IMG/VR virus record: IMGVR_UViG_3300044825_000904
Coordinates: 32,001 to 96,000 of that record
DNA from: a virus
Length of the DNA: 64,000 bases
Direction: 5' to 3' (one strand)
A program made the position numbers and the translations under genes. Positions within the stretch are counted from its first letter, which is position 1. Every line of letters begins with the position of its first letter. This document shows positions 988 to 57,047 of the stretch, piece by piece. The notes under the pieces are model-generated. The model did no database searches, had not been told where the DNA came from, and saw only the letters and a program-made list of their open reading frames with translations.

Positions 988-1188
988 ATGAAAGAGCATA
1001 TTGACTATACTAACACAACAATTCGCTTCATCAATAAGATGACAGACGAGATATATGAGGCTCTTATAGACAAAGAGTACGAAGACCTTCAAGACTCTAT
1101 TTCAATTCTAATCGAAAAATTAAATCAATTACGTGATGAAACCTTACCTAGAATACGCACTAGAACTACACCAACAAGGCGATCTTAA
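988..1188 (+). CDS. Hypothetical protein
   Basis: Short helical ORF (ATG 988) overlapping the next gene. Confidence 0.55.
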   Translation: MKEHIDYTNTTIRFINKMTDEIYEALIDKEYEDLQDSISILIEKLNQLRDETLPRIRTRTTPTRRS

Positions 1189-2266
1189 CAAAGCTGAGAT
1201 TGCTAGAAGAGTACAGGAGAATTATAATATGCACGACAGAAATGTCGATACGCTACGCAAAAGAATTTCCGAATACATTTTAAGAACAGAACATCGCAGC
1301 CTAAACGATGAGTGTGATAAAGAAGGTGCACCAATCGGTGAGGTATCGCACTACTGGCTGAAGACTGATAAGCAGTCTATTTTTGTCAAGGTTGACAAGA
1401 AAGACCCGGTACAAACATATCATGACATGCGAGCTGATATCGTGGCTGAGATGCAAAAGCACGCACCTGTATATCCCAAGTTAGATCGCAGTAACATTCA
1501 GGATGGTCACCTATTAGTTGTTGACCCAGCTGATATTCACATTGGCAAGTTAGCCTCTTCTTTTGAGACTGGCGATGACTACAATAATCAGATTGCTGTT
1601 CAGCGTGTACTTGATGGTGTACGTGGAATCGTACAAAAAGCATCTGGTTTTAACATTGACAAGATTCTTTTTGTAGGTGGTAATGACATCCTTCACATAG
1701 ACACCCCAAAACGTACGACTACAAGCGGAACTCCACAGGATACGGATGGAATGTGGTACGACAACTTTAGAGTCGCTAAGAAGTTATATATCGAGGTCAT
1801 CGAGATGTTAATTGGTATAGCTGACGTTCACTTTGTATTTAATCCATCAAACCACGACTACACTAATGGCTTCTTTTTAGCCGATGCAATCGAGTCTTGG
1901 TTCCATAATAATCCAAACATCACATTTGATTGCTCTATTGCCCACCGTAAGTACACTCAGTATGGCTCAAACCTAATTGGCACAACACACGGAGACGGGG
2001 CTAAGGTATCAGACTTACCCCTATTAATGGCTCATGAAGCAAGTAAAGAGTGGGCAGACTCAAAACACCGCTACATTTATACTCATCACGTGCACCACAA
2101 GTCTTCTAAGGATTACATGGGCGTTTGCGTCGAGTCTCTCCGATCTCCCAGTGGTACCGATAGTTGGCACCATCGTTCCGGATATCAGCATTCTCCCAAA
2201 GCTGTTGAAGGTTTCATTCACCACAAAGAGAATGGGCAGGTTGCACGACTAGTGAATATATTTTAG
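1136..2266 (+). CDS. Calcineurin-like metallophosphoesterase with N-terminal extension
   Basis: ADIH, GND, SNHD, HGD and HHVHH metal-binding motifs. Confidence 0.8.
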   Translation: MKPYLEYALELHQQGDLNKAEIARRVQENYNMHDRNVDTLRKRISEYILRTEHRSLNDECDKEGAPIGEVSHYWLKTDKQSIFVKVDKKDPVQTYHDMRADIVAEMQKHAPVYPKLDRSNIQDGHLLVVDPADIHIGKLASSFETGDDYNNQIAVQRVLDGVRGIVQKASGFNIDKILFVGGNDILHIDTPKRTTTSGTPQDTDGMWYDNFRVAKKLYIEVIEMLIGIADVHFVFNPSNHDYTNGFFLADAIESWFHNNPNITFDCSIAHRKYTQYGSNLIGTTHGDGAKVSDLPLLMAHEASKEWADSKHRYIYTHHVHHKSSKDYMGVCVESLRSPSGTDSWHHRSGYQHSPKAVEGFIHHKENGQVARLVNIF

Positions 2267-5600: not shown

Positions 5601-8600
5601 TCGTATTTAGCCGACATAGCATCATCTAATGCTTTCTGCTGTATTGTGGCTTGCTTGTTTAGGTAATCATTAAACTCCTTGTAATTAATTACTTTAGGTT
5701 TAACTGTTTTACCCTCAACAACCTTTGGAGCAGACACAGACTCAATGAATGCGGTAGCTTTATTTATGTACTCAGGTAGGTTAGTTACTAAATCAGGGTT
5801 AATAGAAGTAAATCCTTTAGCAATGTTCTTATCTTCAGGAGATAAGTTTTTTCTTTTTGCTATACTAGATATTCTACCTTTAAGTTTATTGGCATCAAAC
5901 AAGTCTTTTGCATAATCTGCTTTCTCAATAATTTGTTGCACTTTAGCAATGAATTTATCAAGCATAGCTGGGTTAGCAAGGTTAGACTTTAACCCATTGA
6001 AAATAGCTGATTGTTGAAAAGGTGTAATAGCCCCTCGTGAAACCATTGACTTCAATGTTTCGCTAAGACTTTTTGTAATTCTTTTTACAAAGTCTACACC
6101 TTTCTTAGCTCCTCTGATCTCAGCCTCGATTTGACTAGACACTAACTTAGCATTACTAATAGCTACCTTATCCTCTGACTTCTTAAAAATATCTAATACT
6201 TTACCTATAATAACACTTCTTTGCTCAGCCGTCTCTGCTTTACCATCTAAAGCAGTTAATAAAGAATTAATTGCTTTTGTGTCCAACGCACCTTTAGGTA
6301 ATTTTTTGAGTGTTAAATTAACAAGTTTTTTAGCCTTGTTTGCAAAGTCCATTCCACTCTTAGCAGCTTTCTCTTGTAGTTTTAGTTTCTCTTGTAATGA
6401 CTTCATCTCATCTACAAGAATCATTGTTGGTTTAATACCCAACACCTTCTTTACAGATGGAGGTGATACTTTCTTAGCTGTACCAAGTGAATAGTTCATT
6501 TGTCTGATCATCTCTTCTTTCTGAGTTTGGTCAGCATCGATGTACTCTTGGTTTGTTTTTTGAAATTCAGTTATAGCTTTTTCTTTTACAGCTAATGGCT
6601 GACGTTTAGGGAATGCTTTAACTAAATCTTCTGCTTTTTTAATACCGTTTTTTATTGCTGAATTTTGCTCATCAGACAATTTTGTAGCTTTAGGTGTTTC
6701 AGTAGGCTCTTGTTTTTTTGACAACAAAGATTCAATCGCTTTTGGATATTTTTGCTGCATTTGTAAATCTTCTGCAGCCGTAATCTCCTCGCCATTATAT
6801 ATTCTATCTGCTAATTCCTGGACTTTTGTCCATTCCTCTTGAGACATCTCTGTTGGCTGAGCTACTTCTTCGACTTTAACTTCTTCGGTAGGGACTTGAG
6901 GTTCTGATTGGGGTTCTCCTTCCTCCACTTCTCCGCTAACTCCGGTTTCTGGCTGTACAGGTACTTCACTTGTTGTTTGCTCTTGAATGGCATTTTTTGG
7001 TAGTTTAGATAGTTCTTGATTATTTTTTTCTATTTGTGCTTCTTTTTCTTTCATTGAAGCAGTAACATCTGTAACTAAATTAGGGTCTTTACCTACAATA
7101 GATTCAGACATCTGCTCTAATTCAGATTCAATTTTAGCATTATCTGCTAATATAGTAAATGCTTTTCTTTGACTTTCTACAGGAATTTGATCAGGTATTA
7201 AATCAAGAATTCGCTTAGATTCATTTAATGCTTTTAATTGATTTTCAGCATCCTCTTTTGTGATGACGCCAGTTGATAAATCAGTTGTTATTTTAGATAT
7301 TGTTAATTGTGCATTTTCTGGGTCTTGAATCAAAGACTTCATTGCAACAAAATCATCATTAGATAAGTCTTTGCCTTTTAAAGCAGATTGAGCTGCCATG
7401 ATAGGTGCTCCCATAATTAGACCACCAATACCTTCAACATTAGCATCGTATATAACTTTGCCTAGAAATTCTTTAGAAAGTATTTCAGGATTCTTAAATA
7501 AATCTATGTTATTTGCTTTATCATAAATTTCTTTAGTAATCATTTCTGCAGAAGATTGTAATGCTCCTGTTTCAGCTTCAACTCCATAAGACTTTGCAGC
7601 ACTTTCTGCAGTCTTTAATAGTAATTTACCAGCAGTACTTTCTGCAAACTCTTTGGTTGCTTTGCCTATTAAATCCATTGTTGCGTTTGCAGGTATTTTT
7701 GATAATACCGCAGAAACAAATTTTCCAACAACAGGAGTTAATGCAGGAGCACCTTGTTTTAATAATCTACCAAAGCTAACATCTTCTAAATAACCAGATA
7801 TAATTGCAATAGGTAATGTGATTTTTTTCCTTTCATTTTCATCCATTGATGCCAATGCCGGATCATTATCCATTTGTTCGTTTAGGCTTGCATATGTTTG
7901 CATCGCACCAGTAGCAAAACGACCATATCCACCAGATGCCATTATAGGTAAACTTTCAGCTATACCTAATGTCGCAAGTGGAAGAATTCCTTCTTTCTTC
8001 TTCTCTTGAATAAATTCTTCTGTAGTTCCCTTTGACTTTACTTCTTCGTATCCCTTTTTAAGAATAGGTTTGAATGTATTTATAACTTCCTTTTTAGATA
8101 AGTCTTTAACTTTTGAGTTAATCTCCTCTTCAGTAAGTTTACCTTTACCTTCTTTTATAACTTGGTTTCTTAATTCAGCTTTCTTTTCCTTGCTTGCATA
8201 ATCTATACCCATTAAATCAAGCAATTCAATACCTGCATCAATAGTAGACCGTTGAAATCCTTGTGCAGAACTTTCCAGACCATTTATAATTGAATTCCAA
8301 AGAGCTCCTCCCCAATTACCTTGCTCTGCTTTTTTCTTATAGTTTGCTACAGCTTTCTTTTTTAATTCAAGATTTGCTACATCAACCTCACTTGCTTGAT
8401 TATTAAGTGCCTGAGATCTTTGGTTTAATTCCTCTTGTCTTTTTTGTAAGTCTTTTTGAAGTGTAATTAATTGGGGATCAGACGGATTAAGTTCAGCTAA
8501 TTGCTGAAAAGAATTTAAGTCATCTTGAAACGATTTCGAGTCAGCATTAAATGCCTTGATATCAGATGCCACAAGTTTTGATTTCTCAATGACGCCTTTA

Positions 8601-9043
8601 CTTAAAGCATTAACATCTTGTTTATTTTCTAACCAAGATTTATCTTTTAAATTATATGGTTTTGGTTTTTCTGGTGCACGAAGAAGCTCGCCCTCGGTTG
8701 AAGGTAGTTCTTGTTTAGTAGGCTCTTGTGCTAAAAGTTTACTTCCTGATTGACCAAATGATGCCGATGGTCCAGTTACTATCTGACCTTTGGAAACCGA
8801 AGAAGGCTTCGTAGTTTCCGAAGGAGTAGCTGAAACCATACCTTGAGTCTGGTCTTTTTTTTTTGACCAAAACTGGCCTACAAATTCTTGTTCAGATTTT
8901 GTATAAAGATTCTGCTCCTTTAAGGTATTATACAATCTCTTCTGTCCATCAGGACTACCGAACTGATTAACAAACTCATCATAAGATTTGGTATATAATT
9001 TGTCCTTACTTAATTGATCGTATAATCTTTTACCGTTATCCAT
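2696..9043 (-). CDS. Giant (2115 aa) internal virion/ejection protein
   Basis: Last gene of the podovirus structural operon; helical, with a duplicated N-terminal LYTKS motif; no catalytic motif recognised. Confidence 0.6.
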   Translation of the reverse strand: MDNGKRLYDQLSKDKLYTKSYDEFVNQFGSPDGQKRLYNTLKEQNLYTKSEQEFVGQFWSKKKDQTQGMVSATPSETTKPSSVSKGQIVTGPSASFGQSGSKLLAQEPTKQELPSTEGELLRAPEKPKPYNLKDKSWLENKQDVNALSKGVIEKSKLVASDIKAFNADSKSFQDDLNSFQQLAELNPSDPQLITLQKDLQKRQEELNQRSQALNNQASEVDVANLELKKKAVANYKKKAEQGNWGGALWNSIINGLESSAQGFQRSTIDAGIELLDLMGIDYASKEKKAELRNQVIKEGKGKLTEEEINSKVKDLSKKEVINTFKPILKKGYEEVKSKGTTEEFIQEKKKEGILPLATLGIAESLPIMASGGYGRFATGAMQTYASLNEQMDNDPALASMDENERKKITLPIAIISGYLEDVSFGRLLKQGAPALTPVVGKFVSAVLSKIPANATMDLIGKATKEFAESTAGKLLLKTAESAAKSYGVEAETGALQSSAEMITKEIYDKANNIDLFKNPEILSKEFLGKVIYDANVEGIGGLIMGAPIMAAQSALKGKDLSNDDFVAMKSLIQDPENAQLTISKITTDLSTGVITKEDAENQLKALNESKRILDLIPDQIPVESQRKAFTILADNAKIESELEQMSESIVGKDPNLVTDVTASMKEKEAQIEKNNQELSKLPKNAIQEQTTSEVPVQPETGVSGEVEEGEPQSEPQVPTEEVKVEEVAQPTEMSQEEWTKVQELADRIYNGEEITAAEDLQMQQKYPKAIESLLSKKQEPTETPKATKLSDEQNSAIKNGIKKAEDLVKAFPKRQPLAVKEKAITEFQKTNQEYIDADQTQKEEMIRQMNYSLGTAKKVSPPSVKKVLGIKPTMILVDEMKSLQEKLKLQEKAAKSGMDFANKAKKLVNLTLKKLPKGALDTKAINSLLTALDGKAETAEQRSVIIGKVLDIFKKSEDKVAISNAKLVSSQIEAEIRGAKKGVDFVKRITKSLSETLKSMVSRGAITPFQQSAIFNGLKSNLANPAMLDKFIAKVQQIIEKADYAKDLFDANKLKGRISSIAKRKNLSPEDKNIAKGFTSINPDLVTNLPEYINKATAFIESVSAPKVVEGKTVKPKVINYKEFNDYLNKQATIQQKALDDAMSAKYDKLLEEGKVTSNMNVADIEDYLKGVQENPKSFDYPKSVQVLKDSREFFEDSKKEVLEMIKNGEVNKEDLPLIKKFIDMNLLRMSSMDAFKAAKSLENFIVNGSTANMGLILDTYTGALKADQMLKLLEYKKRVVDKKIKLGGYKKYVYALGDIPYYLSNKKVKKLSDVYQENWLKELGHIDNFGSTYFGKPWEDIKEAMGYDRIEQGAVQTKQAVIDFSNKIEEKYKDRKNGEHNFLTSYTANELAMVGILYREATNMDTKQYFDERKKNIKETIEYLEEQEENKDLAERLRDIYEKLDIENATSGKEVFDRANPVIREALNDYISEYQKWYPEFARIAKEQFGIILSPDANYLPDFWEKTVDYDPEADVFSTRGFSIGHDIVNTKPAGNFIAPKYPDGLPRNADGSVNKIINFDFFQNNNRALTSTIGNVKTAPGMNQYLGFVNSPAFRYIIKNKYSRDLFKDKMDYTIRSLTNNAKTPKSGAIFDFLAPLYSYLGKAGARLGLSSVFAASKQTLPLFLNTLTYLNKNSGKMLEAMKIINDPKVMEWMNKMPYTVSVRSKESVTSIDFASKLLDKGDYSTKDKAAKSIKSALDFIIDKRLVPADVYIARTSWLAIYLNELQKLGVKDFDFDGYDSPESIKAAKEAERIVKKEHNQSMSELLPRLYSGKDSARKFARMAFGPFSGYSMAMKDKIKANSAILFDTNFKATKEEKADAAKSMVATLIEQTMFNGLRWGIGAFFIGVANYIDNEEEDEDTKTLKAMQEAQRMGTSTLQSFTGSLPFVEEEAEQYAINGLLDLVDYLHAYITNKEDGKMSPEQEAAWKKFESGGEESMPETYEEKQRKKTKEKINKPLRIFIPETEGKFDAMMSLMGGTTAVSYEVGKKVIFDNFMELYKGGYTDKYDKFHPYTEEEKQKILNRMYLAPGEITVFPTEYRSIQNKRKKNFIKNVLKREDYDKKMEAEFNKTN

Positions 9044-31275: not shown

Positions 31276-34200
31276 TTAGTTTAAGTTTAATAATTGTTCT
31301 AATTCTGATACACGTTTCTCTAATCTTGCAATCTTTGCTGTATGCACCTCACGATAAGAAAGACTCAGTAATCCGTCTGTTCCTTTGCTAACTGCACTTG
31401 GTAATATTTCTTGTACATCTTGTGCAAAGTATCCAAGTTCTTCTTTACCATTCTTAATATACAACTTAGCTATAATAGATTCAATACCTTTAGTTTGATA
31501 ATTATCTTCAATTAAAGTCTTAATAGTTTTATCTGAAGATTCAAAGAAACTTGCAGCTGTTACAGCACCACCATTTGTCATTGTTAATAATGCTGTACTA
31601 TTTCTTCCAATCGCAAATTTATCTGTTCCGACAGAACAAACACCAATCCCAATATCCCAATACATATCTGCAGCCGCATTTCCTGCCATTCTAAGCATTG
31701 CACCATATGTAGTTCCTGTATATCCATTAACCCCATTTTGAGTGTATGATACGTGAGGATTAATGTGCATCACCCATCTATCATTAGAACTTCCATATAA
31801 TGTTGGATATGATGCACTTCCTGCCCAAGATGCTTGTACTCCTCCTAATATCGCCTTAAATGAACCGGTATCCATTGCAATTTGTCCATTTACATAAACA
31901 TTGTATCCTGCATCTGTATTAGTGTTTATTAAAATATTTCCATTTGTATTGATTTTTAAATATTGAGTACCACTAACATTGAATGATTGGTAATTATATG
32001 TTCTAACAATTAACGCTGAACTATTCCATGTTTCCAAATATCCAATTCCTGATTCATAACCCAACGAAAGACCACCTGTTGATGTTGCATTTATAGTCCT
32101 ACCAATTGCTTTTATTGATCCATTTACTTCAAATTTTTCACCCGGCGAATTCGTTCCAATTCCTACGTTTCCTGCAAAATATGACTTAGCGGCATTCCCT
32201 GAATAAATAGAATAATCATTTGTAGCAGTACCCGAATTTGGTCCATCAACAAACAATGCATAACGATTAGTAACAGAAGTTCCACTAGATAAAGATATAT
32301 AAATACCATATAAATTAGTAATTGTATTGCCAAAAGTTGGATTGAATACCGCACCAAATTGACTAGTACCACTTGTAAATGCAGTACCACTTACTTGCAT
32401 CATTCTATCAGATGATAATGTACCAAAGCCAACATTTAATTCTCCTTGAGTTGTAACACTACTCGAAAACGTGGCTGCTCCTGATGTTGCTATTGTTAAA
32501 TTAGCACTACCACTTTGCCCAATATAAATTGGTTGAGAATAAGATGTAATTAATAAAGGTCTACTACCACTTTCAATTCGATTATTTACTGAATCCCAAT
32601 AACCAATTGTCATTCCGGGTAACCCTAAACGATAATCAGATGTTAATTGTCCACTAAACCTTCCCGTACCACTTACATCAAGTTGATATCCATTATTAGT
32701 TGTCTGATTAATACCTATTTTACCATCACTAAAAATCTTTAAGGCTCCACCACCAACACCAGGTCTATCAAAATTCACGACACCTGGGGCAACAGATAAA
32801 ACTGTATTTCCAACGTGATCAGCACCTCCACCAATTCGAACTTGACCTGTACCAAAATAAGTATTTGAATATGCAATACCTGCATCTCCGGTTGTTAAAT
32901 ACTGATCGCCTGCTGATGATGGTGTAACTCTAATTCCTACATTGCCATTTGTTTGCAATGTGCTAGAAAATAAACCGCCACCATTTGCCGCAATTGTTAA
33001 ATCAGCCGTATTTCCGCTTCCTCTTAATTCTAAATTATTTGTTGAATGGTTATAAACTATTCCTGCCTCATTCATTGTAGTGGCATCTGAAAAATAAATT
33101 GAACTATAATTTAATCCCTTGATTTGAATTGCAGCCTCTCCGTTTTCCTCAACAATTAATTGCCCAAAATAAGTACCTCCAACTGATGATGTTTTAATTG
33201 TTAATGCTCCACTAAATCTACTTGTTCCGTTTACATCAAATTTATATCCTGAATTTGTTGGTGTTCCAATCATTACATTGCCACCCTCCGGATTAATTGC
33301 TAATGAAGCCCAAGAATTTAATGCAGAATTATGACCGCCAATTGTCGGCCCTAAATAATTACCTATTACGACTTTATCGGCATTGCCTGTACCTGCAAAT
33401 GTTCCGCTAATCCAACTTCCTGATGTTGCAGCAACTTGCAATCTAACCGCATTTACATTGGATGTTGTCGCAATCGAAATTGCATCTCCGTGATCATAAA
33501 TTAAACTATTGCCCAATGCACTTGCTGATGTCCATTTTGGCAAATAATTTGTTCCACCTGATCCTGTGACTAATCCTGATAATGTTGAAACCGATCCATC
33601 AGCCATCAAATATTGTGATGATGTGCCACCCGATTTGATAAAAGATGCCGATGTCAATGTTCCGGTATTTATCGCATTACCCGATGGTGTTATTTGGAAT
33701 TTTGTTACACCGGCTGTTTGGTCATAAATATAAAAATACCCTGAATCAACAAATAATGTGTAATCCGGATTATTATCTGTATCGGTGAAATATAACTTTG
33801 GTGCAATTCCGCTGATTGTCATATCTCCTGTGAATACAGGGTTGGCCGCATCCGCTTTTAAAGCAAGTTTTGCCAACACCGCATTTGAATTTGGATATTC
33901 CGTATCACTAGCCAATAAATTCGACACCATTTTATCCTTTCTTTGATAAATGGTAGCAGCATCAGTAGTATTTAAGTATGTACTATTATCATAAGTGATA
34001 GTAGTACCAGAAGCTTTTACAAATCCAGTTCCATCTAATTTAGCTTGAGCACCTAAACTTGTTAAAGTTTGGTCTCCTGTATTTGTACCACTCAAATTAG
34101 ATGCACTAATTGTACCAGTAACTGTAAGATTACCAGTATTGGTTAATGATAATCTTCTAGCACCATTCCACTGAATTACAAAATCAGCACCAGCAGAAGC

Positions 34201-48825: not shown

Positions 48826-50208
48826 TTAGAATATTAAGAGTTTTTTCTTTGAATACTTGGTATATACCCCATATCTAATAGCATCTAAAGCGTGATTGAA
48901 GTCATCAATTGGTTTATTAATCGGTTTACCACCCACTGTTATCCATTGATAGTTATCAATCTCCTTTTTGATGTTCTTTGATCTCCGAGTATAATATACC
49001 TCGTATTCACGCAACTTACTTATTCCAGCATTAACAGAGTCATTTCCTTTAACCGCTTTCACGACCTTAATCCCTGCTCTCTTTAATTCCTCAATACTTT
49101 TAGGATCAGCACTATCAGCATAAATCTCATTCAATTTATCTGGATACATCTTAATCTTCTTAATTAAATCGGAATTCGTTAATCCCTTCTCATAAATTAC
49201 CTCGTCAAGGTATAACTTATTTCCGAGTTTTGCAATTCTAATCAGTGAAGTAGGGTCATTAGAGAATCCAAAGTCAAGTCCGCTAAAGATAACATCAGCA
49301 TCCTTAGGAAACAGCTCACAAGGCTGCCAATCGTGATAAATTAAGCTTTCTGAACTCGGTTTAGGTGATTGTTGATATAAAGATTCGAAAGTAAATGGCT
49401 CATTCTTCTTAACTCTTAATAATTTCTCCAAGGAATGCTTCTCAGGCCATAAAGCTTCACCAAACTCCCTTTCATCATAATCATTCTCGGCTTTCTCTCG
49501 AATAGCAGGAAATTCAATGATTGTCCAATCGTTATCCCTTTCAAGTAACCTACCAGCTAAATCATCATCATACCACCGAGTTTGGATAAGAACTTGTGCA
49601 CTATCGTTATGCAAACGAGTTTCCCACACATCGGTATACCAGTTCCATAATTGCTCTTTAATGATAATACTTTGAGCTTCTTGTCTATCCTTTAGCGGAT
49701 CATCAATGATTCCAATATCAACAGCAGTACCTGTAAGTGAGCCTCCACGACCTACAGCCCTTAAATAACCCCTTCTGCCAACAGTTTGAAAGAATTCAGC
49801 AGTCTTAACTGCCTCACCCTTCTTCTCCCCTATCCTACTATCTGGATATAACATCTTAAACTCCTCACTAAGCATCCTACGCTGTATCTCCGTAGAAAAT
49901 TGTTCAGCTAATGTAGCATTATAAGAAGCCAAGGCTAATTTCAAATCGGGGTTTCTACCAAGCAAGTAAGCAGGGAAGCTACGAGTAGATAATTCAGACT
50001 TTCCGTGTTGCGGAGGCACAAATATCATCAACTTCTTAATCTTACCTGCATATACCAAGTCCAAGTGATCAGCAATCACCTTGTGAAACCACCTCATATC
50101 ATAATCAGGCTTGATATAAGAAACAAAACTACTAAACGACCTCCTCGAAAGTTCCCTCGTCAATATTTCTCTCTCTAATTTCGCTAAGTCGTTGTCTAAT
50201 TTGGTCAT
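48826..50208 (-). CDS. Terminase large subunit, module B
   Basis: PPQHGKS Walker A, IIDD Walker B, QTRW, GLDFGFSNDP, DSADP, NHALDAIRY. Confidence 0.93.
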   Translation of the reverse strand: MTKLDNDLAKLEREILTRELSRRSFSSFVSYIKPDYDMRWFHKVIADHLDLVYAGKIKKLMIFVPPQHGKSELSTRSFPAYLLGRNPDLKLALASYNATLAEQFSTEIQRRMLSEEFKMLYPDSRIGEKKGEAVKTAEFFQTVGRRGYLRAVGRGGSLTGTAVDIGIIDDPLKDRQEAQSIIIKEQLWNWYTDVWETRLHNDSAQVLIQTRWYDDDLAGRLLERDNDWTIIEFPAIREKAENDYDEREFGEALWPEKHSLEKLLRVKKNEPFTFESLYQQSPKPSSESLIYHDWQPCELFPKDADVIFSGLDFGFSNDPTSLIRIAKLGNKLYLDEVIYEKGLTNSDLIKKIKMYPDKLNEIYADSADPKSIEELKRAGIKVVKAVKGNDSVNAGISKLREYEVYYTRRSKNIKKEIDNYQWITVGGKPINKPIDDFNHALDAIRYGVYTKYSKKKLLIF

Positions 50209-50629
50209 CACTTAATAATTTAGGATTAACAGTATCATTATGAATACTCAAGTCTTGCTCAATACGTTGTGTGCTCTTACCATGCTCAAACTCCAACATA
50301 AAAGCAGTATTCTTTAACTCACCATTGTTTATGTCACCCAAGATAGATGAAGCCATTACAGCCATAAACCCAGGAGTATTACTATCAGCAACTAAACGCT
50401 TTAAATCAGCAACACTCAAGCTACTAATGTAAGTCATCACCTTAACCACCTCAGGTTTACTCATCCTTAAACGATATTGCTCGTCTAAGTTCTTCATTAC
50501 CTCCTTAATTACACTCTTTGGCCTACCATAAGGATTCCTAACCTCTCCAGGCTTAATGGAGTATTGTCTAATGTTTTCGTAATTACCCCTAGGCTTCGTT
50601 TCAACTAAAGGTTGTTCTTCAGCTTCCAT
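50132..50629 (-). CDS. Terminase small subunit
   Basis: KPGEVRNPYGRPK motif; overlaps TerL. Confidence 0.7.
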   Translation of the reverse strand: MEAEEQPLVETKPRGNYENIRQYSIKPGEVRNPYGRPKSVIKEVMKNLDEQYRLRMSKPEVVKVMTYISSLSVADLKRLVADSNTPGFMAVMASSILGDINNGELKNTAFMLEFEHGKSTQRIEQDLSIHNDTVNPKLLSDDQIRQRLSEIRERNIDEGTFEEVV

Positions 50630-50776
50630 AATTGTAGTAGTTTATATTAACCCCAAAAAAACTTAGAATTTTTTTAGGCACTTTTTAAAATCATTTCAAT
50701 AAACAAAAATCACTTTCACCATTATTATACTTATTATACTAAGAGTATACTTAATATATAATATATATCTTTTCTT

Positions 50777-50795
50777 ATTTATAATCATTCTAAAT
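50777..50795. promoter_or_regulatory. Fur-box-like palindrome 1
   Basis: ATTTATAATCATTCTAAAT. Confidence 0.65.
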
Positions 50796-50854
50796 AATAC
50801 TTAACTTCTTAATAACCAACACGTTATTGATTAAATTCCGCCCCGATTTACCCT

Positions 50855-50873
50855 ATTTAGAACCATTCTTAAT
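50855..50873. promoter_or_regulatory. Fur-box-like palindrome 2
   Basis: ATTTAGAACCATTCTTAAT. Confidence 0.6.
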
Positions 50874-51433
50874 AGAAAGATTGTGTAAACATAAACATTA
50901 AACTCTCTCTAAACAACCATATTCTCTTTTTATTACAATATTCAAATACCATTTGTAAACAACTATTAACCAAATTTTGCTAGGATTTTTTTGGAGGGTT
51001 ACCAGGAAAAACTACCCCCTCCCCCTTTTGCTACCCAGCTTTTTACCCTTGTACCCCTCTTTTACCCCTGTATACCCCTATAATAAGGGCCTAACAGGGT
51101 ATAAACGTAGGAAACAAAGGGTATACCAGTAGAAAGAGGTGACAGGCCGAGGGTAGCCACCCTACAAAATCCACCTTTTACCCTTGTTTCCTTGCCTTGT
51201 TACTGTTCATATATACACAAAGGGAATACAGCCCTATTATAACAGCGTTAATACCTTGCGTTTAAACCCTTATTATTATTGAAGGTATACAAACATACTA
51301 CCACTGGGTAAACACGTTAATACAAGGCAATACAAGGGCCTAAACAAAGCGTTTAATTAATTAGGTTTAATGATCTTATATAGTGGCTATCTAAACCACC
51401 TGTTTACCTTGCTTAACTAAGTGTTTATACATT

Positions 51434-51452
51434 ATCTGTAATGATTATAAAT
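51434..51452. promoter_or_regulatory. Fur-box-like palindrome 3
   Basis: ATCTGTAATGATTATAAAT with TT/AA flanks. Confidence 0.5.
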
Positions 51453-51734
51453 AAGGATTAAAGAAAGAAATAAAAGAAAAAGAAAGTAAGCAAAGAAAAA
51501 GAAATACAAAGAAAGAAAAGAGAGTTACTTTTAAGTATACTATATAATATACTTAATGATATAATATAAGAGTATACTTAAGGGTATACTAAGGAGTATA
51601 TTATATAGTATACTTAAGGGTATAATATTTGTAATTGGTAAAAAAAGGAAAAAATTGAAATAAAAAAGCATTTATTAAAATATATTTTTATTCCCTTATT
51701 CGGTTAAATAAGCCTATTTATACTGTTATCAGTA

Positions 51735-51753
51735 ATTTATAATCATTCTAAAT
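51735..51753. promoter_or_regulatory. Fur-box-like palindrome 4
   Basis: ATTTATAATCATTCTAAAT, identical to box 1. Confidence 0.65.
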
Positions 51754-51820
51754 AAGGTGTATATTCTTATTATACAGCGTTTAAACCTACATTTTACCCT
51801 GTTTTATATCTTATATCCTT

Positions 51821-51839
51821 ATTTAGAACCGTTATAAAT
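51821..51839. promoter_or_regulatory. Fur-box-like palindrome 5
   Basis: ATTTAGAACCGTTATAAAT, 11 bp upstream of the -33 element. Confidence 0.6.
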
Positions 51840-51850
51840 TAGCATTAATA

Positions 51851-51882
51851 TTTGTTTACATTAATTAACTGCATTAAGTTTG
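51851..51882 (+). promoter_or_regulatory. Bacteroidota sigma-A promoter (early)
   Basis: TTTG (51851)-N20-TAAGTTTG (51875). Confidence 0.75.
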
Positions 51883-51905
51883 TCTCAACAAAAACGGTAA
51901 ACGAT

Positions 51906-52070
51906 ATGAAAAATACAGAAAAAACACAATTGTTTTGGGTAGCAGGTGATCACGTTAAAGGCTTTAAAATTCACACTAAGCAGCCCCGCCATAAATTTGT
52001 AAGAGAGCCTTTTAGCTCTCGCGAAGCTTGCCAAAGATTTATTGCATTGGAATATTTATTAAACGCTTAA
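51906..52070 (+). CDS. Early hypothetical protein (ATG 51906)
   Basis: MKNTEKTQLFWVAGD, directly after the promoter. Confidence 0.55.
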   Translation: MKNTEKTQLFWVAGDHVKGFKIHTKQPRHKFVREPFSSREACQRFIALEYLLNA

Positions 52071-52088
52071 CTAAACAAAATTACTAAT

Positions 52089-52199
52089 ATGAAAAATTAC
52101 AAACCTTTTGAAATTGTTTTGATCTATTCTTTTGCGGCTGTTGCCTTTTTTATGGTTATCGCTGCAGCTTCACAAATTCTTAACATTTTAAACTTTTAA
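52089..52199 (+). CDS. 36-aa hydrophobic peptide
   Basis: MKNYKPFEIVLIYSFAAVAFFMVIAAASQILNILNF. Confidence 0.45.
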   Translation: MKNYKPFEIVLIYSFAAVAFFMVIAAASQILNILNF

Positions 52200-52203
52200 T
52201 CTT

Positions 52204-52329
52204 ATGAAATTCTTATCAAACTTATTAACGGCCCTTTCAGGTGAACCAATGGAGGCCCAAACAAACGAAATGCTTTTCGCTTCGCTTACTGTATTTATTA
52301 CTTTATTAATCCTTTCTATAAACTTTTAA
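52204..52329 (+). CDS. 41-aa peptide with hydrophobic C-terminus
   Basis: MKFLSNLLTALSGEPMEAQTNEMLFASLTVFITLLILSINF. Confidence 0.45.
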   Translation: MKFLSNLLTALSGEPMEAQTNEMLFASLTVFITLLILSINF

Positions 52330-52340
52330 AATTTACAGCT

Positions 52341-52784
52341 ATGAACAATTTCAATAAATACGGATACATTGAGGACTTACAAGACCTTTTATTACAGGCT
52401 ATTTTAGACAATGATTTAGATAGAGCCGATTATATTGGTGATCATATTGCAGCGGACCTAGACAATCAAGTAATATATTATCAAGATTGCTTTGAGATTG
52501 CTGAAGCCTTAAGCCTTACAAGTTTTACAGGCTATGAACTGGGAGACGCTACCAATATTTCACAATTAGCCTATTTCGGTTTATACGAGTTTATTAATGA
52601 GGAACTAGACTATAATTTTATAGAAAACGCAATAAATGCAAAGGAGGATTTTGATATCTGGGCCGCTTCTGATAATTGCATAAACATACCAGGGGGATTG
52701 ACTCAAACCCAGTGCACCCAATACGGCAAAAATTTCACCTTTTTAGAATTATTTAAATATTACTTACAAGAATACGCAAATTAA
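52341..52784 (+). CDS. Very acidic early protein (possible DNA mimic)
   Basis: Asp/Glu-rich, aromatic; VIYYQDCFEI segment; function by inference only. Confidence 0.45.
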   Translation: MNNFNKYGYIEDLQDLLLQAILDNDLDRADYIGDHIAADLDNQVIYYQDCFEIAEALSLTSFTGYELGDATNISQLAYFGLYEFINEELDYNFIENAINAKEDFDIWAASDNCINIPGGLTQTQCTQYGKNFTFLELFKYYLQEYAN

Positions 52785-52829
52785 CATTTTAACAAACCTT
52801 TATTTTATCACACTTAACACACAAAAAAA

Positions 52830-53393
52830 ATGAAAGCATTAAACCTTATTTGCAGCAAAAACGAGCCATTTCGTCCACAAATGGAATACATTAGACTATT
52901 AAACGGTAATTTTTACGCTACGGACGCTATTATCTTAATTAAAGTACCTTTTTACGAGGTGATCCCGAGGCCATTATTTGACGAACTTACGGCCCATTTT
53001 GGCGACGAAATGTATTTCAGTGCTCAAAATTGGAAAGATGCAAAAGTAGAAAAGGGCTGTATTTTTAAATTTAAGCCTGAATGTGATTTAATTGAAATTT
53101 TCGACAATAAAAAAAGCCTGGGATTTTTACAGGTTCATAAATCTAGCGATTTTGAGAAATTATACAGCCGTTTTCCTAATTGTGACCAGGTCCTACACAC
53201 AAGCGAAGCACAAACAGAAAGTTTAGAAAGTGTTTCTATTAATCCTGATAAATTAGGGGCTTTATATAGTGCCATGGGCAAAAAAGATATTAAACTAACT
53301 TTTTACGGCCCAGGTAAGGCTATAAAGGCTAATTTTAGAGAAAGCGAAGCCCAGGCCGTAATTATGCCCATTACATTAAATAATTTCGAATAA
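52830..53393 (+). CDS. Truncated DNA polymerase III beta-clamp-like protein
   Basis: RPQMEYI...YATDA, RFPNCDQV, SINP..L, AVIMP resemble clamp domains 2-3. Confidence 0.55.
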   Translation: MKALNLICSKNEPFRPQMEYIRLLNGNFYATDAIILIKVPFYEVIPRPLFDELTAHFGDEMYFSAQNWKDAKVEKGCIFKFKPECDLIEIFDNKKSLGFLQVHKSSDFEKLYSRFPNCDQVLHTSEAQTESLESVSINPDKLGALYSAMGKKDIKLTFYGPGKAIKANFRESEAQAVIMPITLNNFE

Positions 53394-53621
53394 ATGCAGC
53401 GTTTCACAGTAAGGCCCAGCGATCAAATTATAGTAATTTGTCGCTACAGGGGGGAGATTATAGACAAAAACCGTTATTTTGGCTATAAATCCATAACAGA
53501 AATAAAAGAAAGCTTTTTAGCTTGCCTACCTGTAGAATTCAAGAATACAGGTAAAAGAATAGAATTAACCTTTTTTAATGTTAATCGAACAGTTACAAAA
53601 TACGTAAATACATTTAGTTAA
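53394..53621 (+). CDS. Hypothetical protein
   Basis: Abuts previous gene; followed by terminators. Confidence 0.55.
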   Translation: MQRFTVRPSDQIIVICRYRGEIIDKNRYFGYKSITEIKESFLACLPVEFKNTGKRIELTFFNVNRTVTKYVNTFS

Positions 53622-53625
53622 AATT

Positions 53626-53723
53626 AGGGCCTCTTTGGCCCTTTTTTTATAGACTCTATTTTATTGCAGTTTATTAAGGCCCTTTTAGGGCTTTATTTAT
53701 TTAGGCCCTGTTTAGGGCTTTTT
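53626..53723 (+). terminator. Three tandem GGCCC/GGGC hairpin terminators
   Basis: AGGGCC-TCTTT-GGCCCT-T; AAGGCCCT-TTT-AGGGCTTT; AGGCCCT-GTTT-AGGGCTTTTT. Confidence 0.7.
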
Positions 53724-54000
53724 ACGTTTCTGGGGTATTCCTATTACTGCCCAGGTTTAAACCCTGCAGGATCAAAGGAAAGAGCCCAGGACAAACCAAT
53801 TAAACCAGGATAAACCCTGGACCAATTGCAAGGTATTACCAGGGCTTCAATACTTTGAATTTAAGGCCCTAAAATACACTAGCCTAATAAATTACACGTT
53901 AAAAACATTTTAAACGCTTACAAGCAAAATAAACCCTGTTAGGGGGCAAAATTTAGATTAATATGAGAGAATACAAAACCAGTACAGGACCAAAATCACT

Positions 54001-54019
54001 ATTTAGAATGTTTCTAAAT
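54001..54019. promoter_or_regulatory. Fur-box-like palindrome 6
   Basis: ATTTAGAATGTTTCTAAAT. Confidence 0.65.
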
Positions 54020-54236
54020 AAGCAAAAAATGACAAGTCATAATTCTCAGGGAATTGGGGAAAAAGTGGGCGAACTCCCGAGAGCAAAAAAAGCTGATAGT
54101 CCTGGCCGAAATTTGGAGCAAATCGGTTTTTCCCTGGTGATTTTTGTGATCGCCTTGGTGGGAACTTTCATTTTTGTTTGGTATACAGCTCTTAAACGCA
54201 ATCTTTGAAAATCTTTTTAAAAATAACGAATAAATG

Positions 54237-54269
54237 TTTGCAACTATGAATAATAAATGTTTACATTTG
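54237..54269 (+). promoter_or_regulatory. Bacteroidota sigma-A promoter
   Basis: TTTG-N21-TACATTTG. Confidence 0.7.
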
Positions 54270-54290
54270 TCAAATCAAAATGACAACAAA

Positions 54291-54476
54291 ATGCCAAGAA
54301 TAAAAACAGTAGAAAATAAGAGAAAAGCTGGGAGACCAAAACTAGCTCCTTCGACCACAGTTTCCTTCAGAATTCCGATTCATTTAAAGAATCAAGTTGA
54401 GAATAGATATGGGAAACATTGGCCACAAATTTTCAAAGACTTTATAGCCGTTTTATTGGCTGAAGATAAGGGTTAA
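54291..54476 (+). CDS. Small DNA-binding protein (AT-hook plus ribbon-helix-helix-like)
   Basis: RKAGRPK followed by TTVSFRIPIHLKNQV. Confidence 0.55.
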   Translation: MPRIKTVENKRKAGRPKLAPSTTVSFRIPIHLKNQVENRYGKHWPQIFKDFIAVLLAEDKG

Positions 54477-54572
54477 AAACAGTGATTAATAAAGGTGTAG
54501 TGCAGTAAAATTTGAAAATTTTTTTTTCCTATTTTCTAAATTTATCACTTTTTGGAAATTTTATTTTTGGGT

Positions 54573-54917
54573 ATGAAACAAATAATCTATGGCCAAGTGC
54601 CAAGTAAGTCTAATGGTTACAGAATGTCTGGACACTTTATGTACAAGAAGAAAGCTGTAATTGATTACGAAGAATCGTTTTACTTGCAATGTGTGCAATA
54701 CCGAGACTTAGAGCACAAAGGATTTTTTGAGTTATACCTAGATGTGTACTTCCAAAGCAATAGAAGCGATATAGATGGTAGTTTAAAGATTATCCTAGAT
54801 ACACTTCAAAAGAAGGTAAAAGCCTTTAAGAATGACAACAAATGCGTTTTACTCCACGTTAGAAAAGGAGTTGATAAAATTACCCCAAGAATAGAATTTG
54901 AATTGAAGTTTTTATAA
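54573..54917 (+). CDS. rusA: RusA-like Holliday junction resolvase
   Basis: GQVPSKSN, SDIDGSLKIILDTLQ, NDNKC, PRIEF. Confidence 0.8.
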   Translation: MKQIIYGQVPSKSNGYRMSGHFMYKKKAVIDYEESFYLQCVQYRDLEHKGFFELYLDVYFQSNRSDIDGSLKIILDTLQKKVKAFKNDNKCVLLHVRKGVDKITPRIEFELKFL

Positions 54918-55048
54918 TATTAAAGAATTTACTTGTTTAAATATACGACTGTAAATATTGGCATTGAGGTTCTTAGTCGTATAACCCTCGGTACACGGTT
55001 TGCCACTGCAAGGCCACAAGTAATGACAGCTGGAAAGACAGCATATTT

Positions 55049-55122
55049 GGACTTATAGCTCAGATGGTTAGAGCAGGTCGCTCATAACGACAAGGTCACA
55101 GGTTCGACTCCTGTTTGGTCCA
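55049..55122 (+). tRNA. tRNA with CAU anticodon (probably Ile2, otherwise elongator Met); CCA not encoded
   Basis: GGACTTA acceptor, TAGCTCAGATGGTTAGAGC D-arm, GTCG-CTCATAA-CGAC anticodon arm, ACAGG-TTCGACT-CCTGT T-arm. Confidence 0.9.
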
Positions 55123-55145
55123 CTAACAATTAATTTTTAACAACT

Positions 55146-55532
55146 ATGATGACAAAAGAGCAATCACACAATTACCTAACTTATTATGCCCTATGCAACT
55201 TCATGACCGACTTCGTTGATGAGAAATGGGTACACAGTTCCTACAATGTTAGGAAGGTTAAGCTATTAACAAACCAGTTAAAGCAAGAATTAGAAAAATC
55301 AGTTGATCACGTTTTTACCAATAAAAATACCGATGGTGTTGATATGGGTAATGTATTGGAGCAATTTGTAAATGCTGCTAATGTTATGCACTTCTTCTTT
55401 AAAATTGGTTTATTCCTAGATGAAATGCCATACGATAAGAAGCATGAGCTTAATAAGCGAATCAATGATTTATTATTAGAGTATAACATAATTTTAACAA
55501 CAGATATTAATACAAATGGACTCAATAGTTAG
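55146..55532 (+). CDS. Hypothetical protein
   Basis: ORF in operon. Confidence 0.55.
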   Translation: MMTKEQSHNYLTYYALCNFMTDFVDEKWVHSSYNVRKVKLLTNQLKQELEKSVDHVFTNKNTDGVDMGNVLEQFVNAANVMHFFFKIGLFLDEMPYDKKHELNKRINDLLLEYNIILTTDINTNGLNS

Positions 55533-55875
55533 TGAAATTATTCAGCAATATCAGATTAGAGCTGAATTTGGTGAGAAAAAATATGGTGTTACTCTTGATA
55601 GAGAGGATTTATCCATAGAAGATTGGATAGAACACGCTAAACAAGAAGCAATGGACTTTACATTGTACCTAGAAAAGTTGAAGAAAGTGCTTGCTTCTGG
55701 TAATTATCCAGAATTAGGTAATATCGAAGCATCACATGAGACTAAAAATAGAATTATCTATAATCTTAACAGGGTTATAATGTCTCAAGAAGATGAAATT
55801 AAAGGCTTAAAAGCCGAAATTGACGAATTAAAAAAGGAATTACACAACAAAACTAAACGTGCTTGGCATCATTAA
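55516..55875 (+). CDS. Conserved phage all-alpha (MazG/dNTP pyrophosphatase-like) protein
   Basis: RAEFGEKKYGVTLDREDL...WIEHAKQEAMDFTLYLE. Confidence 0.45.
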   Translation: MDSIVSEIIQQYQIRAEFGEKKYGVTLDREDLSIEDWIEHAKQEAMDFTLYLEKLKKVLASGNYPELGNIEASHETKNRIIYNLNRVIMSQEDEIKGLKAEIDELKKELHNKTKRAWHH

Positions 55876-55876
55876 T

Positions 55877-56308
55877 ATGGAAACAGTATTTAAAAAAGGT
55901 GATAGAGTATATGATGCCATGTTAGGTTGGGGAGAAATTATTGATTTTAATTATTTAAAGCGTTATTTTAATGTTTTATTTGACACAGGAACAAGTATTT
56001 ATTATTGTGAAGATGGAGCATTATACGATTATGAAAATAGAAATCAATTTAAACCTACCTTATCCTTCACCGAATACACACTTGAAGGATTTAGTCAAGA
56101 ATGGCCAGAAGAATTACCTAATATAGGTGATGTAGTTTGGGTAAGAGATCACGATAAAGATTTTTGGATTGTATCCCATTTTATAAAAAAAGTAGATAAT
56201 AAATATATAGTTTCTAATAACAATCCATTTACATATAGCTATACAGAATATGATGAATGGAATTTTATGACAACAAAAAACCCTTATACAAATGAAGGCA
56301 GCATTTAG
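55877..56308 (+). CDS. Hypothetical protein (Bacteroidota phage type)
   Basis: FKKGDRVYD...GWG, PTLSFTEYTLEGFSQE. Confidence 0.55.
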   Translation: METVFKKGDRVYDAMLGWGEIIDFNYLKRYFNVLFDTGTSIYYCEDGALYDYENRNQFKPTLSFTEYTLEGFSQEWPEELPNIGDVVWVRDHDKDFWIVSHFIKKVDNKYIVSNNNPFTYSYTEYDEWNFMTTKNPYTNEGSI

Positions 56309-56474
56309 ACAGTATTTAGAAGATTTAGAAGGTGGTAAAGTGCGATCAGAGGATTATTACCTTGAGTTAGAAGAAGAAATTATTAATATCGCTTACGATG
56401 CTGGTTTTAGGGATGGAATAAGCCCTGCAGAAGAATTTAATAACGATTACTTTAACTCAAATTATTTAGAGTAA
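56292..56474 (+). CDS. Hypothetical protein
   Basis: EEIINIAYDAG; stop codon lies inside box 7. Confidence 0.5.
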   Translation: MKAAFRQYLEDLEGGKVRSEDYYLELEEEIINIAYDAGFRDGISPAEEFNNDYFNSNYLE

Positions 56475-56482
56475 TTCTAAAT
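56464..56482. promoter_or_regulatory. Fur-box-like palindrome 7
   Basis: TT-ATTTAGAGTAATTCTAAAT-AA. Confidence 0.65.
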
Positions 56483-56515
56483 AACATTAATTTTTGAAAA
56501 TATTTTTAAATATTA

Positions 56516-56545
56516 TTGTAAACAATAAATAACATACTACATTTG
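56516..56545 (+). promoter_or_regulatory. Bacteroidota sigma-A promoter
   Basis: TTG-N19-TACATTTG. Confidence 0.65.
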
Positions 56546-56567
56546 TATCACACAAAACAAAAATATT

Positions 56568-56798
56568 ATGGAAGAAAACTTAAAATTATTTAACTGGGAG
56601 TTAGAACGTATTGGTATAACCAAGGAAGACTTCTGGATTTTATCTATTTGGAAGAATCAGCCAGCAACTGCACAGGCTGAATATAGGGCTTCCCTAGCAG
56701 TAAAATTTATTAAATGTGGATATAATAGTAGGGTTAATCCTAGTGGTTCTGTCACTTTTACTCATCCTCAAAACAAGTTTGAATTTACATTATCCTAA
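56568..56798 (+). CDS. Hypothetical protein
   Basis: First ORF after promoter. Confidence 0.55.
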   Translation: MEENLKLFNWELERIGITKEDFWILSIWKNQPATAQAEYRASLAVKFIKCGYNSRVNPSGSVTFTHPQNKFEFTLS

Positions 56799-56810
56799 AC
56801 AATAATTATT

Positions 56811-57047
56811 ATGGGAAGACCTAAAAAACCAGTAATTCCTACTGTAGACCCAAAGGAAGTTATTTATTATTATGCTTCATCCGAAGCGATTTTAAATTCT
56901 CATGATGAGATTTATCCAGAACCTACTATTGATAAAGCAATAAGCTATTTAAGAGAGCAAGAAGATGAATTAGACCATGTTTTTATATTTGAAATAAAAA
57001 TGAAAGGTCATTATAAAACTACATTTACTTTAGAAGAAATTAAATAA
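56811..57047 (+). CDS. Hypothetical protein with GRPKK N-terminus
   Basis: AT-hook-like start. Confidence 0.5.
   Translation: MGRPKKPVIPTVDPKEVIYYYASSEAILNSHDEIYPEPTIDKAISYLREQEDELDHVFIFEIKMKGHYKTTFTLEEIK

Follow-up and report, generated by a model that had tools for sequence, protein, structure and literature searches.

Six conserved Fur-box-like palindromes, lying at early promoters and upstream of the packaging genes of a siphovirus, suggest, as far as can be judged from DNA, that infection by this phage is tied to the iron status of its host. The window analysed was a 64,000-nucleotide stretch of IMG/VR record IMGVR_UViG_3300044825_000904 (positions 32,001 to 96,000 of the 104,271-bp record), and its numbering is used throughout. 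Host Fur probably binds the palindromes and couples early transcription to iron. Their predicted identity as Fur-box-like elements is well supported, given the literal match to a published consensus, the iron-gene contexts of the same motif in Flavobacteriales and the signs of purifying selection on the sites. The phage, an uncultured virus of Bacteroidota, shows no lysogeny genes and belongs to a group of virulent-looking siphoviruses with genomes of ~39 kb.

A search for 19-bp palindromes matching ATTTAGAATnATTCTAAAT at three or fewer mismatches returned six, compared with 0.38 expected from 100 dinucleotide-preserving shuffles, of which the highest gave three matches and none attained six; an earlier sequence-only reading of this DNA had proposed such a comparison. 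All six are 7-1-7 inverted repeats with one to three mismatches to the consensus, and they are confined to 5.7 kb, with no other match at this threshold across the record and no match at all to a reversed-pattern control. Counted against ATTTAGAATNATTCTAAAT, the mismatches number one in site L1 (50777..50795), two in L2 (50855..50873, 78 bp away from L1), one in E2 (51735..51753), three in E1 (51821..51839, with E2 86 bp upstream of it), one in the site upstream of promoter P2 (54001..54019) and one in the site upstream of promoter P3 (56464..56482). The sequence-only reading had listed seven palindromes, six of which stand; the seventh (51434..51452) has four mismatches, with one good and one poor half-site, and is not significant alone, since two equally weak matches occur elsewhere in the record. 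It had also placed every site in or at the edge of intergenic DNA, which holds for most of them: the site at 54001 falls within an 81-aa open reading frame (ORF; 53963-54208) and would be intergenic if that ORF started at the in-frame ATG at 54029, and the site at 56464 overlaps the final codons of ORF 56292-56474. The other virion module of the record yielded no site, in agreement with that reading.

L1 and L2 are separated from E2 and E1 by a repeat-rich, apparently non-coding central region (50880..51730) with TTTTACCCTTGT-type direct repeats, an A-rich tract and TTAAGTATACTTAA-type palindromes, for which an origin or packaging role is a guess. On the L1 side, the leftward (late/packaging) operon begins with a presumed small terminase gene, terS (50132..50629, minus strand), directly upstream of terL (48826-50211); the sole family match of its product is phrog_15125, of unknown function. 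The two sites nearest to it, L1 being the closer, are 157 and 235 bp away from its start codon, on the upstream side. In the rightward direction, strict matches to the Bacteroidota-type promoter pattern TTG-N17-23-TAnnTTTG start at 51852, 54238 and 56516, bearing out three promoters claimed earlier: P1 (51852..51882, with -33 TTG and -7 TAnnTTTG), P2 (54238..54269) and P3 (56516..56545), all on the plus strand. The early promoters serve genes for recombination and replication, along with others of unknown function.

The phage consensus is, letter for letter, the published Fur box of Riemerella anatipestifer, ATTTAGAATTATTCTAAAT, a 7-1-7 inverted repeat with similar variants (e.g. ATTTATAAT half-sites), as the sequence-only reading had correctly stated (PMC5609570). 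The published motif was derived with RegPredict and with EMSA on whole promoter fragments, which were shifted by Fur, and without footprints (PMC5609570). The boxes of R. anatipestifer lie less than 100 bp from the start codons of chromosomal iron-uptake genes (PMC5609570), whereas those of the phage stand ahead of the -33 element of early promoters, within the core control region. Exact copies in Flavobacteriales genomes are intergenic. They precede genes for TonB-dependent receptors, imelysin and cytochrome c as well as hemA and nqrA, and others adjoin apaG and genes for multihaem cytochromes and an Fe-S assembly ATPase; the motif marks the iron regulon of Fur-encoding Flavobacteriales in general; two genomes with exact copies carry a single Fur-family gene each. 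The label 'host Fur box' is an extrapolation from the Flavobacteriales as a whole, and the phage's own host species may differ; no close prophage was present in 401 sampled genomes and no close isolate was found. The core TTTAGAA-N3-TTCTAAA is shared with the iron control element (ICE) of Bradyrhizobium and other Rhizobiales, which is bound by the Fur-family regulator Irr and reportedly gives positive or negative control according to its position in the promoter (PMC1698941), and it is therefore a bona fide Fur-family operator type; Rhizobiales were also among the database matches to the box. That position-dependent sign parallels the two geometry classes described below, although Irr is active in low iron, belongs to another phylum and involves no phage.

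In more than 25 related 35-39 kb phages, where the sequence-only reading had suggested looking, the sites are retained as conserved islands. Core entropy is 0.15-0.32 bit as against 0.9-1.0 bit in the flanks, while the central N varies freely. L1 occupies the same place in 18 relatives (core 0.15 bit, flanks 0.90 bit), and L1 and L2 are spaced 77-78 bp apart in every relative. Five complete relatives of 35-39 kb carry five to six sites each, with reversed-control counts of 0, 0, 2, 0 and 0, and 32 distinct sites taken from relatives again give ATTTAGAATnATTCTAAAT as their consensus. Several relatives have a better 'middle' site in the central region, at a position not aligned with 51434. In distant relatives the first early genes are not conserved, yet the sites and their spacing are. 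This pattern points to purifying selection on the sites in related phages. The feature is not universal, since tant8-1, a cultured phage of Flavobacterium, lacks any such site.

The same box recurs well outside this group. At least 120 IMG/VR stretches contain the exact consensus, as compared with four for a reversed control that differs from it in AT/TA dinucleotide content, and they fall into 69 unrelated flank clusters. Their exact boxes are intergenic in 86% of cases, versus 14% of random positions. Most of these other viral loci have one or two boxes rather than arrays, and the box-bearing loci compared share no common protein family. Across 20 independent clusters, the site-to-promoter offsets peak at 29-32, 39-43 and 52-53 bp, and in a post hoc periodicity test they were phased at 10.5-11 bp (Rayleigh R 0.58, p ~1e-4).

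Spacing to promoters is likewise fixed within the phage group. The start of E1 lies 31-32 bp from the start of the P1 TTG in 12 relatives with diverged promoter sequences, and sites stand 51-53 bp ahead of further promoters: the P3 site is 52 bp from its -33 TTG, start to start, and an exact site in relative L005 keeps the same distance. The P2 site is more variable, being 237 bp ahead of the -33 element here, 51 bp before the P2 homologue in relatives L015 and L021, and 202-261 bp away or absent in other subgroups. The boxes end 12 nt (P1), 33 nt (P3) and 218 nt (P2) before the -33 TTG, and thus do not show the layout of classical repression, in which the operator lies over the core promoter. 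In the iron-uptake promoters of hosts, the box abuts the -33 element (TTTG 4 nt past the box) or lies over the -7 element. In their nqrA and cytochrome promoters it stands further upstream, as in the phage: the -7 element is at +65 or +74-77 from the box in nqrA promoters of seven genomes and at +63-64 in two cytochrome c promoters, compared with +54 and +74 in the phage. The host nqrA promoters are without a good -33 element, whereas P1-P3 have both core elements at consensus, so an activator should not be needed there.

We propose that the palindromes are operators for host Fur, predicted to be the sole or principal regulator of the Fur family in hosts of Flavobacteriales type. The conserved core comprises four sites in the central control region of the siphovirus group, two ahead of terS and two ahead of the first early promoter, the latter with centres near -58 and -144; some lineages have extra sites ~52 bp ahead of other early promoters. 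Iron-loaded Fur, when available, would occupy these sites and tie promoters read by host RNA polymerase to the iron state of the cell. The boxes are on the same face of the helix, upstream of the -33 element, in the layout of host nqrA and cytochrome c and unlike that of Fur-repressed TonB-receptor promoters. On the strength of this layout we lean, by a modest degree, towards stimulation or position-dependent modulation in iron-replete cells and away from classical occlusion. The sequence identity to the Fur box, the enrichment, the conservation, the geometry and the contexts in host genomes are observed; the binding of Fur, the sign of its effect and a benefit to the phage are what we infer. 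Observations that count against a Fur switch include the position of the sites off the core promoters, unlike classical Fur operators, the consensus core elements of P1-P3, and a conserved candidate DNA-binding protein encoded next to P2. The sequence-only reading had offered two functional ideas, a cis-acting switch and a passive sponge for Fur; the former fits better, with the fixed 31-32 or 51-53 bp spacing and the helical phasing in unrelated phages telling against the latter. It had also brought in PerR, for which nothing in the analysis calls.

An upstream operator that activates would have a parallel in Neisseria meningitidis, where, as Delany et al. reportedly found in 2004, Fur directly activates norB, pan1 and nuoA from upstream operators. 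There, repressed genes have the operator over the promoter and activated respiratory genes have it upstream, the same split that separates TonB receptors and imelysin from nqrA and cytochrome c in Flavobacteriales hosts. Such activation would be hypothetical in Bacteroidota, and the phage promoters differ in having consensus core elements. A bolder and rather doubtful extension is that Bacteroidota Fur may regulate according to position, activating where its operator stands one to three helical turns ahead of the -33 element (nqr, cytochrome c), and that dozens of unrelated phage lineages could have independently copied this layout onto their early promoters, with phage expression gated by intracellular iron.

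The regulator could also be the phage's own, an explanation that we consider unlikely. The palindromes would then be operators of a phage-encoded protein, their likeness to the Fur box being coincidence or mimicry. The best candidate, missed in the sequence-only reading, is a 61-aa basic protein (gene 54291..54476, protein 54291-54473, plus strand) of possible ribbon-helix-helix (RHH) type, which, in dimeric or tetrameric form, would bind the TAGA-N5-TCTA core and set the timing of early and late transcription. Its gene is the first behind P2, which precedes it in 27 of the 27 loci scanned, and the protein is kept in every subgroup whose locus reaches that far, at 38-53% identity with K-A-G-R-P, S25 and R27 invariant. 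The predicted model has a strand at residues 21-25 followed by a helix, and the closest Atlas clusters are all of RHH type (e.g. CopG, NikA, TacA and HicB C-terminal domains; scores 0.90-0.93). Phage repressors typically have divergent control regions with several operators, and the P22 Arc operator also contains TAGA-N5-TCTA. Nevertheless, the protein has no Pfam RHH_1 match and no PDB match by fold or sequence, and its family is tiny (six representatives among 1.8 billion proteins) and limited to this phage group, whereas the box occurs, in the absence of this protein, both in the 69 unrelated viral clusters and at iron genes of hosts. Nor do the sites overlap promoters. At the gene's own promoter the nearest site is 51 to 261 bp away, or more than 2 kb in several subgroups, unlike autoregulated RHH repressors. 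The control region moreover holds a second, separate repeat family of TTAAGTATACTTAA and ACTAAGTAT units, which could be the operator of the 61-aa protein instead. The siphovirus part of the record encodes no HTH_3 protein. Neither a Fur gene (PF01475) nor a tyrosine integrase (PF00589) was found in the record, as the sequence-only reading had stated, and no Fur homologue was detected in the phage or its five complete relatives.

As a decoy, replicating phage DNA would titrate Fur and derepress host iron uptake and TonB receptors, with promoter effects secondary. The phage's 39 kb carry five sites with two or fewer mismatches, compared with 5-12 in whole Flavobacteriales genomes of 1.6-5.8 Mb, that is, as many as one whole host chromosome, and after replication the phage sites would far outnumber those of the host; with one or two mismatches, the sites also resemble high-affinity ones. 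A decoy, however, needs number and not position, whereas these dense sites cluster in the control region only, at distances from promoters that are fixed in relatives and phased in unrelated phages, and most other viral loci lack arrays. Pure titration fits such spacing poorly and is very unlikely as the main function; it is possible as a side effect of site density. Most improbable is an architectural role, in which Fur or another host protein would be bound for replication or packaging at sites bracketing an origin or pac site: the site pairs do flank an ~850-bp non-coding, iteron-like region adjoining terS, and L1 and L2 are without an identifiable promoter partner, a late promoter having been searched for and not found, but E1 and the P3 site stand at fixed distances from promoters, the box is promoter-linked in other phages, and the origin or pac function of that region is hypothetical only.

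Control by host Fur would extend what is described for other phages. Host regulators act in core phage circuits elsewhere, with LexA in GIL01 and CTXphi and NtcA and PhoB boxes in cyanophages; there too, host transcription-factor sites at phage promoters read host physiology, with a different regulator, signal and host phylum from the Fur, iron and Bacteroidota proposed here. Host iron regulators also act on phage-borne promoters: stx1 is reportedly regulated by Fur, and tox of corynephage beta by DtxR. In lambdoid coliphages, a Fur box precedes sitABCD (PMC6969025). The genes controlled in these cases are accessory ones (morons) carried by temperate phages, and the cargo promoter has a single operator, in contrast to the four to seven sites here, at the early/late control region of a phage without lysogeny genes. 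Our literature search brought up no published case of Fur boxes at the core early promoters of phages.

Growth is iron-limited across much of the ocean and in many niches associated with hosts, and Bacteroidota are prominent in both settings; iron gating, if true, would concern abundant aquatic and gut members of the phylum. The two promoter geometries offer a way to address whether Fur may activate transcription in Bacteroidota. The analysis also shows that host-regulator sites in the genomes of uncultured viruses can be used to infer both the lineage of the host and the cues that phages read. Such coupling would also affect the efficacy of phage control of flavobacterial fish and poultry pathogens in iron-variable settings. 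If many Bacteroidota phages read iron via host Fur, the timing of infection, burst size and carbon release would depend directly and predictably on iron.

In the window (bases 32001-96000 of an IMG/VR record of 104,271 bp), we found six matches to the 19-bp Fur-box-like palindrome ATTTAGAATNATTCTAAAT at ≤3 mismatches, at window positions 50777, 50855, 51735, 51821, 54001 and 56464, against 0.38 expected; none of 100 dinucleotide-preserving shuffles reached six, and the reversed-pattern control returned zero matches in the record. The sequence-only reading, which had named shuffled background as the comparison to make, had counted seven palindromes. Six of these stand, whereas the seventh, at 51434, carries four mismatches and is on par with two stray matches elsewhere in the record. 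As that reading had also noted, there are no boxes in the other virion module, the six being the only sites record-wide. Strict Bacteroidota-type promoters (−33 TTG, −7 TAnnTTTG; + strand) occur in the early region at 51852 (P1), 54238 (P2) and 56516 (P3) only, and each is indeed preceded by a site. On the late side, where the sites at 50777 (L1) and 50855 (L2) adjoin terS, the consensus search for a promoter was negative, a 1-mismatch −7-like element 84 nt from L1 being its sole trace. A terminator-like element, consisting of a short G+C hairpin (CCCT-GTTA-GGGG, 53934-53947) and an A/T-rich stretch, closes the first early operon ~55 bp before the 54001 site. An Rfam scan of 50000-57000 gave one tRNA and nothing else; a tRNA-Met (CAT) gene lies within the early operon at 55049-55123 (+).

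The terL gene (48826-50211) has 34 IMG/VR relatives at 82-100% identity, on contigs of ~35-39 kb. Since relatives are complete at 35-39 kb and direct terminal repeats occur in two of the five complete genomes, the siphovirus carrying the boxes is a unit of ~39 kb. The 104-kb record, in which its virion module and a second, unrelated one are joined (together window 19181-50629 and beyond), probably arose by chimeric assembly or concatenation. The box layout is retained in nearly every relative whose locus extends to the control region, and conservation in related phages, a check named by the sequence-only reading, is thus present: the pair beside terS is 77-78 bp apart, and the pair beside the first early promoter (51735 and 51821 here) 86 bp apart, or 73-74 bp in one subgroup. 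The five complete genomes hold 5-6 sites each within a few kb (reversed-control counts 0, 0, 2, 0 and 0). In a site-anchored alignment, the 18 specified positions had a mean entropy of 0.15-0.32 bit, versus 0.9-1.0 bit in the flanks and 1.1-1.5 bit at the central N, which is the signature of a selected binding site for a dimeric protein. In 12 relatives with diverged promoter sequences, the distance from the start of the proximal early site to the −33 TTG is nevertheless 31-32 bp, and sites at other promoters start 51-53 bp upstream; the first early genes vary between subgroups, while sites and spacing are constant.

The phage-box consensus is letter-for-letter identical to the proposed Fur box of Riemerella anatipestifer, whose Fur shifted promoter fragments containing it (PMC5609570); the sequence-only reading had correctly named it as the box described for Flavobacteriia. 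Exact copies in public genomes are nearly all intergenic and belong mostly to Bacteroidota, with others in some Firmicutes and in Rhizobiales, in which Irr recognises TTTAGAA-N3-TTCTAAA (PMC1698941). Their neighbours in Flavobacteriales include TonB-dependent receptors, imelysin, hemA, nqrA, apaG, multihaem and NapC-type cytochromes, an Fe-S assembly ATPase and T9SS-secreted proteins, and two such genomes have a single Fur-family gene each. Together, the iron-gene neighbours and the single Fur-family gene argue that the relevant lineage has a host Fur-family protein able to recognise the box.

The box is also widespread in other viruses, with exact copies in at least 120 IMG/VR stretches, compared with 4 for the reversed palindrome. 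Among the matches listed, 107 of 125 sites were intergenic (86 of 600 random positions) and 46 of 125 had a strict promoter within 200 bp (35 of 600). Flanks of these listed loci formed 69 clusters with no protein family common to them, and in 20 independent clusters a promoter followed 3' of the box at 29-32, 39-43 or 52-53 bp. The offsets were phased at a period of 10.5-11 bp in a post hoc Rayleigh test against a uniform null (R = 0.58, p ~1e-4). In one large cluster of other viral contigs (L060, L063, L064, L069, L103, L136, L141 and L144), the exact box lies 84-340 bp downstream of a homologue of a 377-aa protein; this protein is encoded in the other phage module of our record (window 1133-2266), where its copy has no box.

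Host promoters fell into two groups by box position. At TonB receptors and imelysin, the box lies against the −33 element or over the −7 element (−7 box start +14, +26 or +45-47), and at nqrA (seven genomes) and two cytochrome c genes it lies upstream (−7 box +63-65 or +74-77); the phage promoters P1 (+54) and P3 (+74) group with the latter class. Upstream of nqrA, an exact box stands at a fixed distance from the promoter (−7 box +65 or +74-77) in L181, L186, L227, L234, L243, L253 and L271, and is common to the divergent apaG gene in three of the seven (L186, L234, L243). This placement points to direct and conserved control of the Na+-NQR operon by Fur in Flavobacteriales-type genomes; our literature search found no published evidence that iron or Fur regulates nqr in Flavobacteriia. 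Two host TonB-receptor promoters (L185, L173) carry an extra Fur-like box immediately ahead of the start codon, besides one against the −33 element, an apparent two-operator repression design.

The simplest account is that host Fur sits on the phage boxes and makes transcription of the early genes, and probably of the leftward late operon as well, iron-responsive. Boxes placed upstream and in phase speak against simple occlusion, and the likeness to ICE/Irr and to the respiratory genes that Fur activates in Neisseria suggests that the boxes would stimulate transcription in iron-replete cells. Activation seems to us somewhat the likelier sign of control. However, consensus core elements are already present in the phage promoters, unlike in those of host nqrA. 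Repression, through looping or Fur spreading, retains a considerable though smaller chance. The sequence-only reading had left the choice between a switch and a Fur sponge. Some titration of Fur by replicated phage DNA is plausible at this density of sites (five at ≤2 mismatches in 39 kb, versus 5-12 in whole genomes of 1.6-5.8 Mb), but the fixed site-promoter spacing favours the switch and speaks against a pure decoy.

The boxes could instead be bound by a phage protein. A gene for a 61-aa basic protein (54291-54476, codons 54291-54473; +) is the first after P2 in each of the 27 related loci that we scanned, and its product, kept across the phage group, has an invariant K-A-G-R-P followed by a short strand and helices. 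Although there was no match in Pfam, a PDB profile search or Foldseek, the sequence pattern, a model (strand at residues 21-25, then a helix; pLDDT 74) and Atlas neighbours point to a ribbon-helix-helix fold. However, the family is limited to this phage group (6 representatives among 1.8 billion proteins) while the box motif is wider, and in several subgroups the homologue of P2, the protein's own promoter, has no nearby box. The control region also offers it another possible target, a second family of palindromic units, TTAAGTATACTTAA and ACTAAGTAT, clustered at 50722-50754 and 51531-51627 and kept beside L1 in relatives, which may be the operator of a phage protein. A phage-encoded Fur was rejected, as no Fur gene was found in the record or the five complete relatives; a regulator shared by the viral box loci, as the widest families among the matches listed were terL and a DnaA-C-like HTH protein (10 of 69 clusters), and our phage lacks the latter; an RNA hairpin, as one with 9-bp AT arms and a 1-nt loop is implausible; and a direct-repeat artefact, as paired sites are alike in the box alone and their flanks differ.

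Between the two site pairs lies a stretch of ~850 bp with higher G+C and without a conserved ORF (50880-51730). It contains conserved boxes, among them CCCCTTTTGCTCC, as well as TTTTACCCTTGT-type direct repeats and an A-rich tract (51460-51525), and may represent an origin, a packaging site or a non-coding RNA. All aligned relatives retain the GTTCCGCCCC box (50832-50842) that lies halfway between L1 and L2, pointing to one more site of protein binding.

Like a Fur gene, an integrase had been reported as not visible in the window, and the siphovirus and the five complete relatives yielded neither a tyrosine integrase nor an Xre-type HTH protein; the sole HTH_3 protein of the record (record positions 8568-8723) sits in the other phage part, and a lysogeny module was rejected. 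No close prophage was found among 401 sampled genomes of the class (best, ≤44% identity over part of terL), and the phage looks virulent. None of 40 siphovirus proteins searched in PHROGs and Pfam (20 of them in both libraries) matched a recognised regulator; the matches comprised a RusA-like protein, a RecE-like exonuclease, DnaB, an endolysin and a cohesin-domain protein. One further protein has an N-terminal pattern that is MazG-like by eye, PHROGs of unknown function being its only matches. Isolated phages gave no DNA match, and the best protein matches were to Flavobacterium and Parabacteroides phages (35-44% identity); Flavobacterium phage tant8-1 has no box. By its promoters, the phage has a host among the Bacteroidota.

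Host regulators such as LexA, NtcA and PhoB act at phage promoters, and Fur/DtxR control of phage cargo genes is known. In lambdoid phages, for example, a Fur box precedes the cargo genes sitABCD (PMC6969025), whereas in the phage described here the boxes lie at core early promoters. We found no literature report of such an arrangement or of its spread among Bacteroidota phages.
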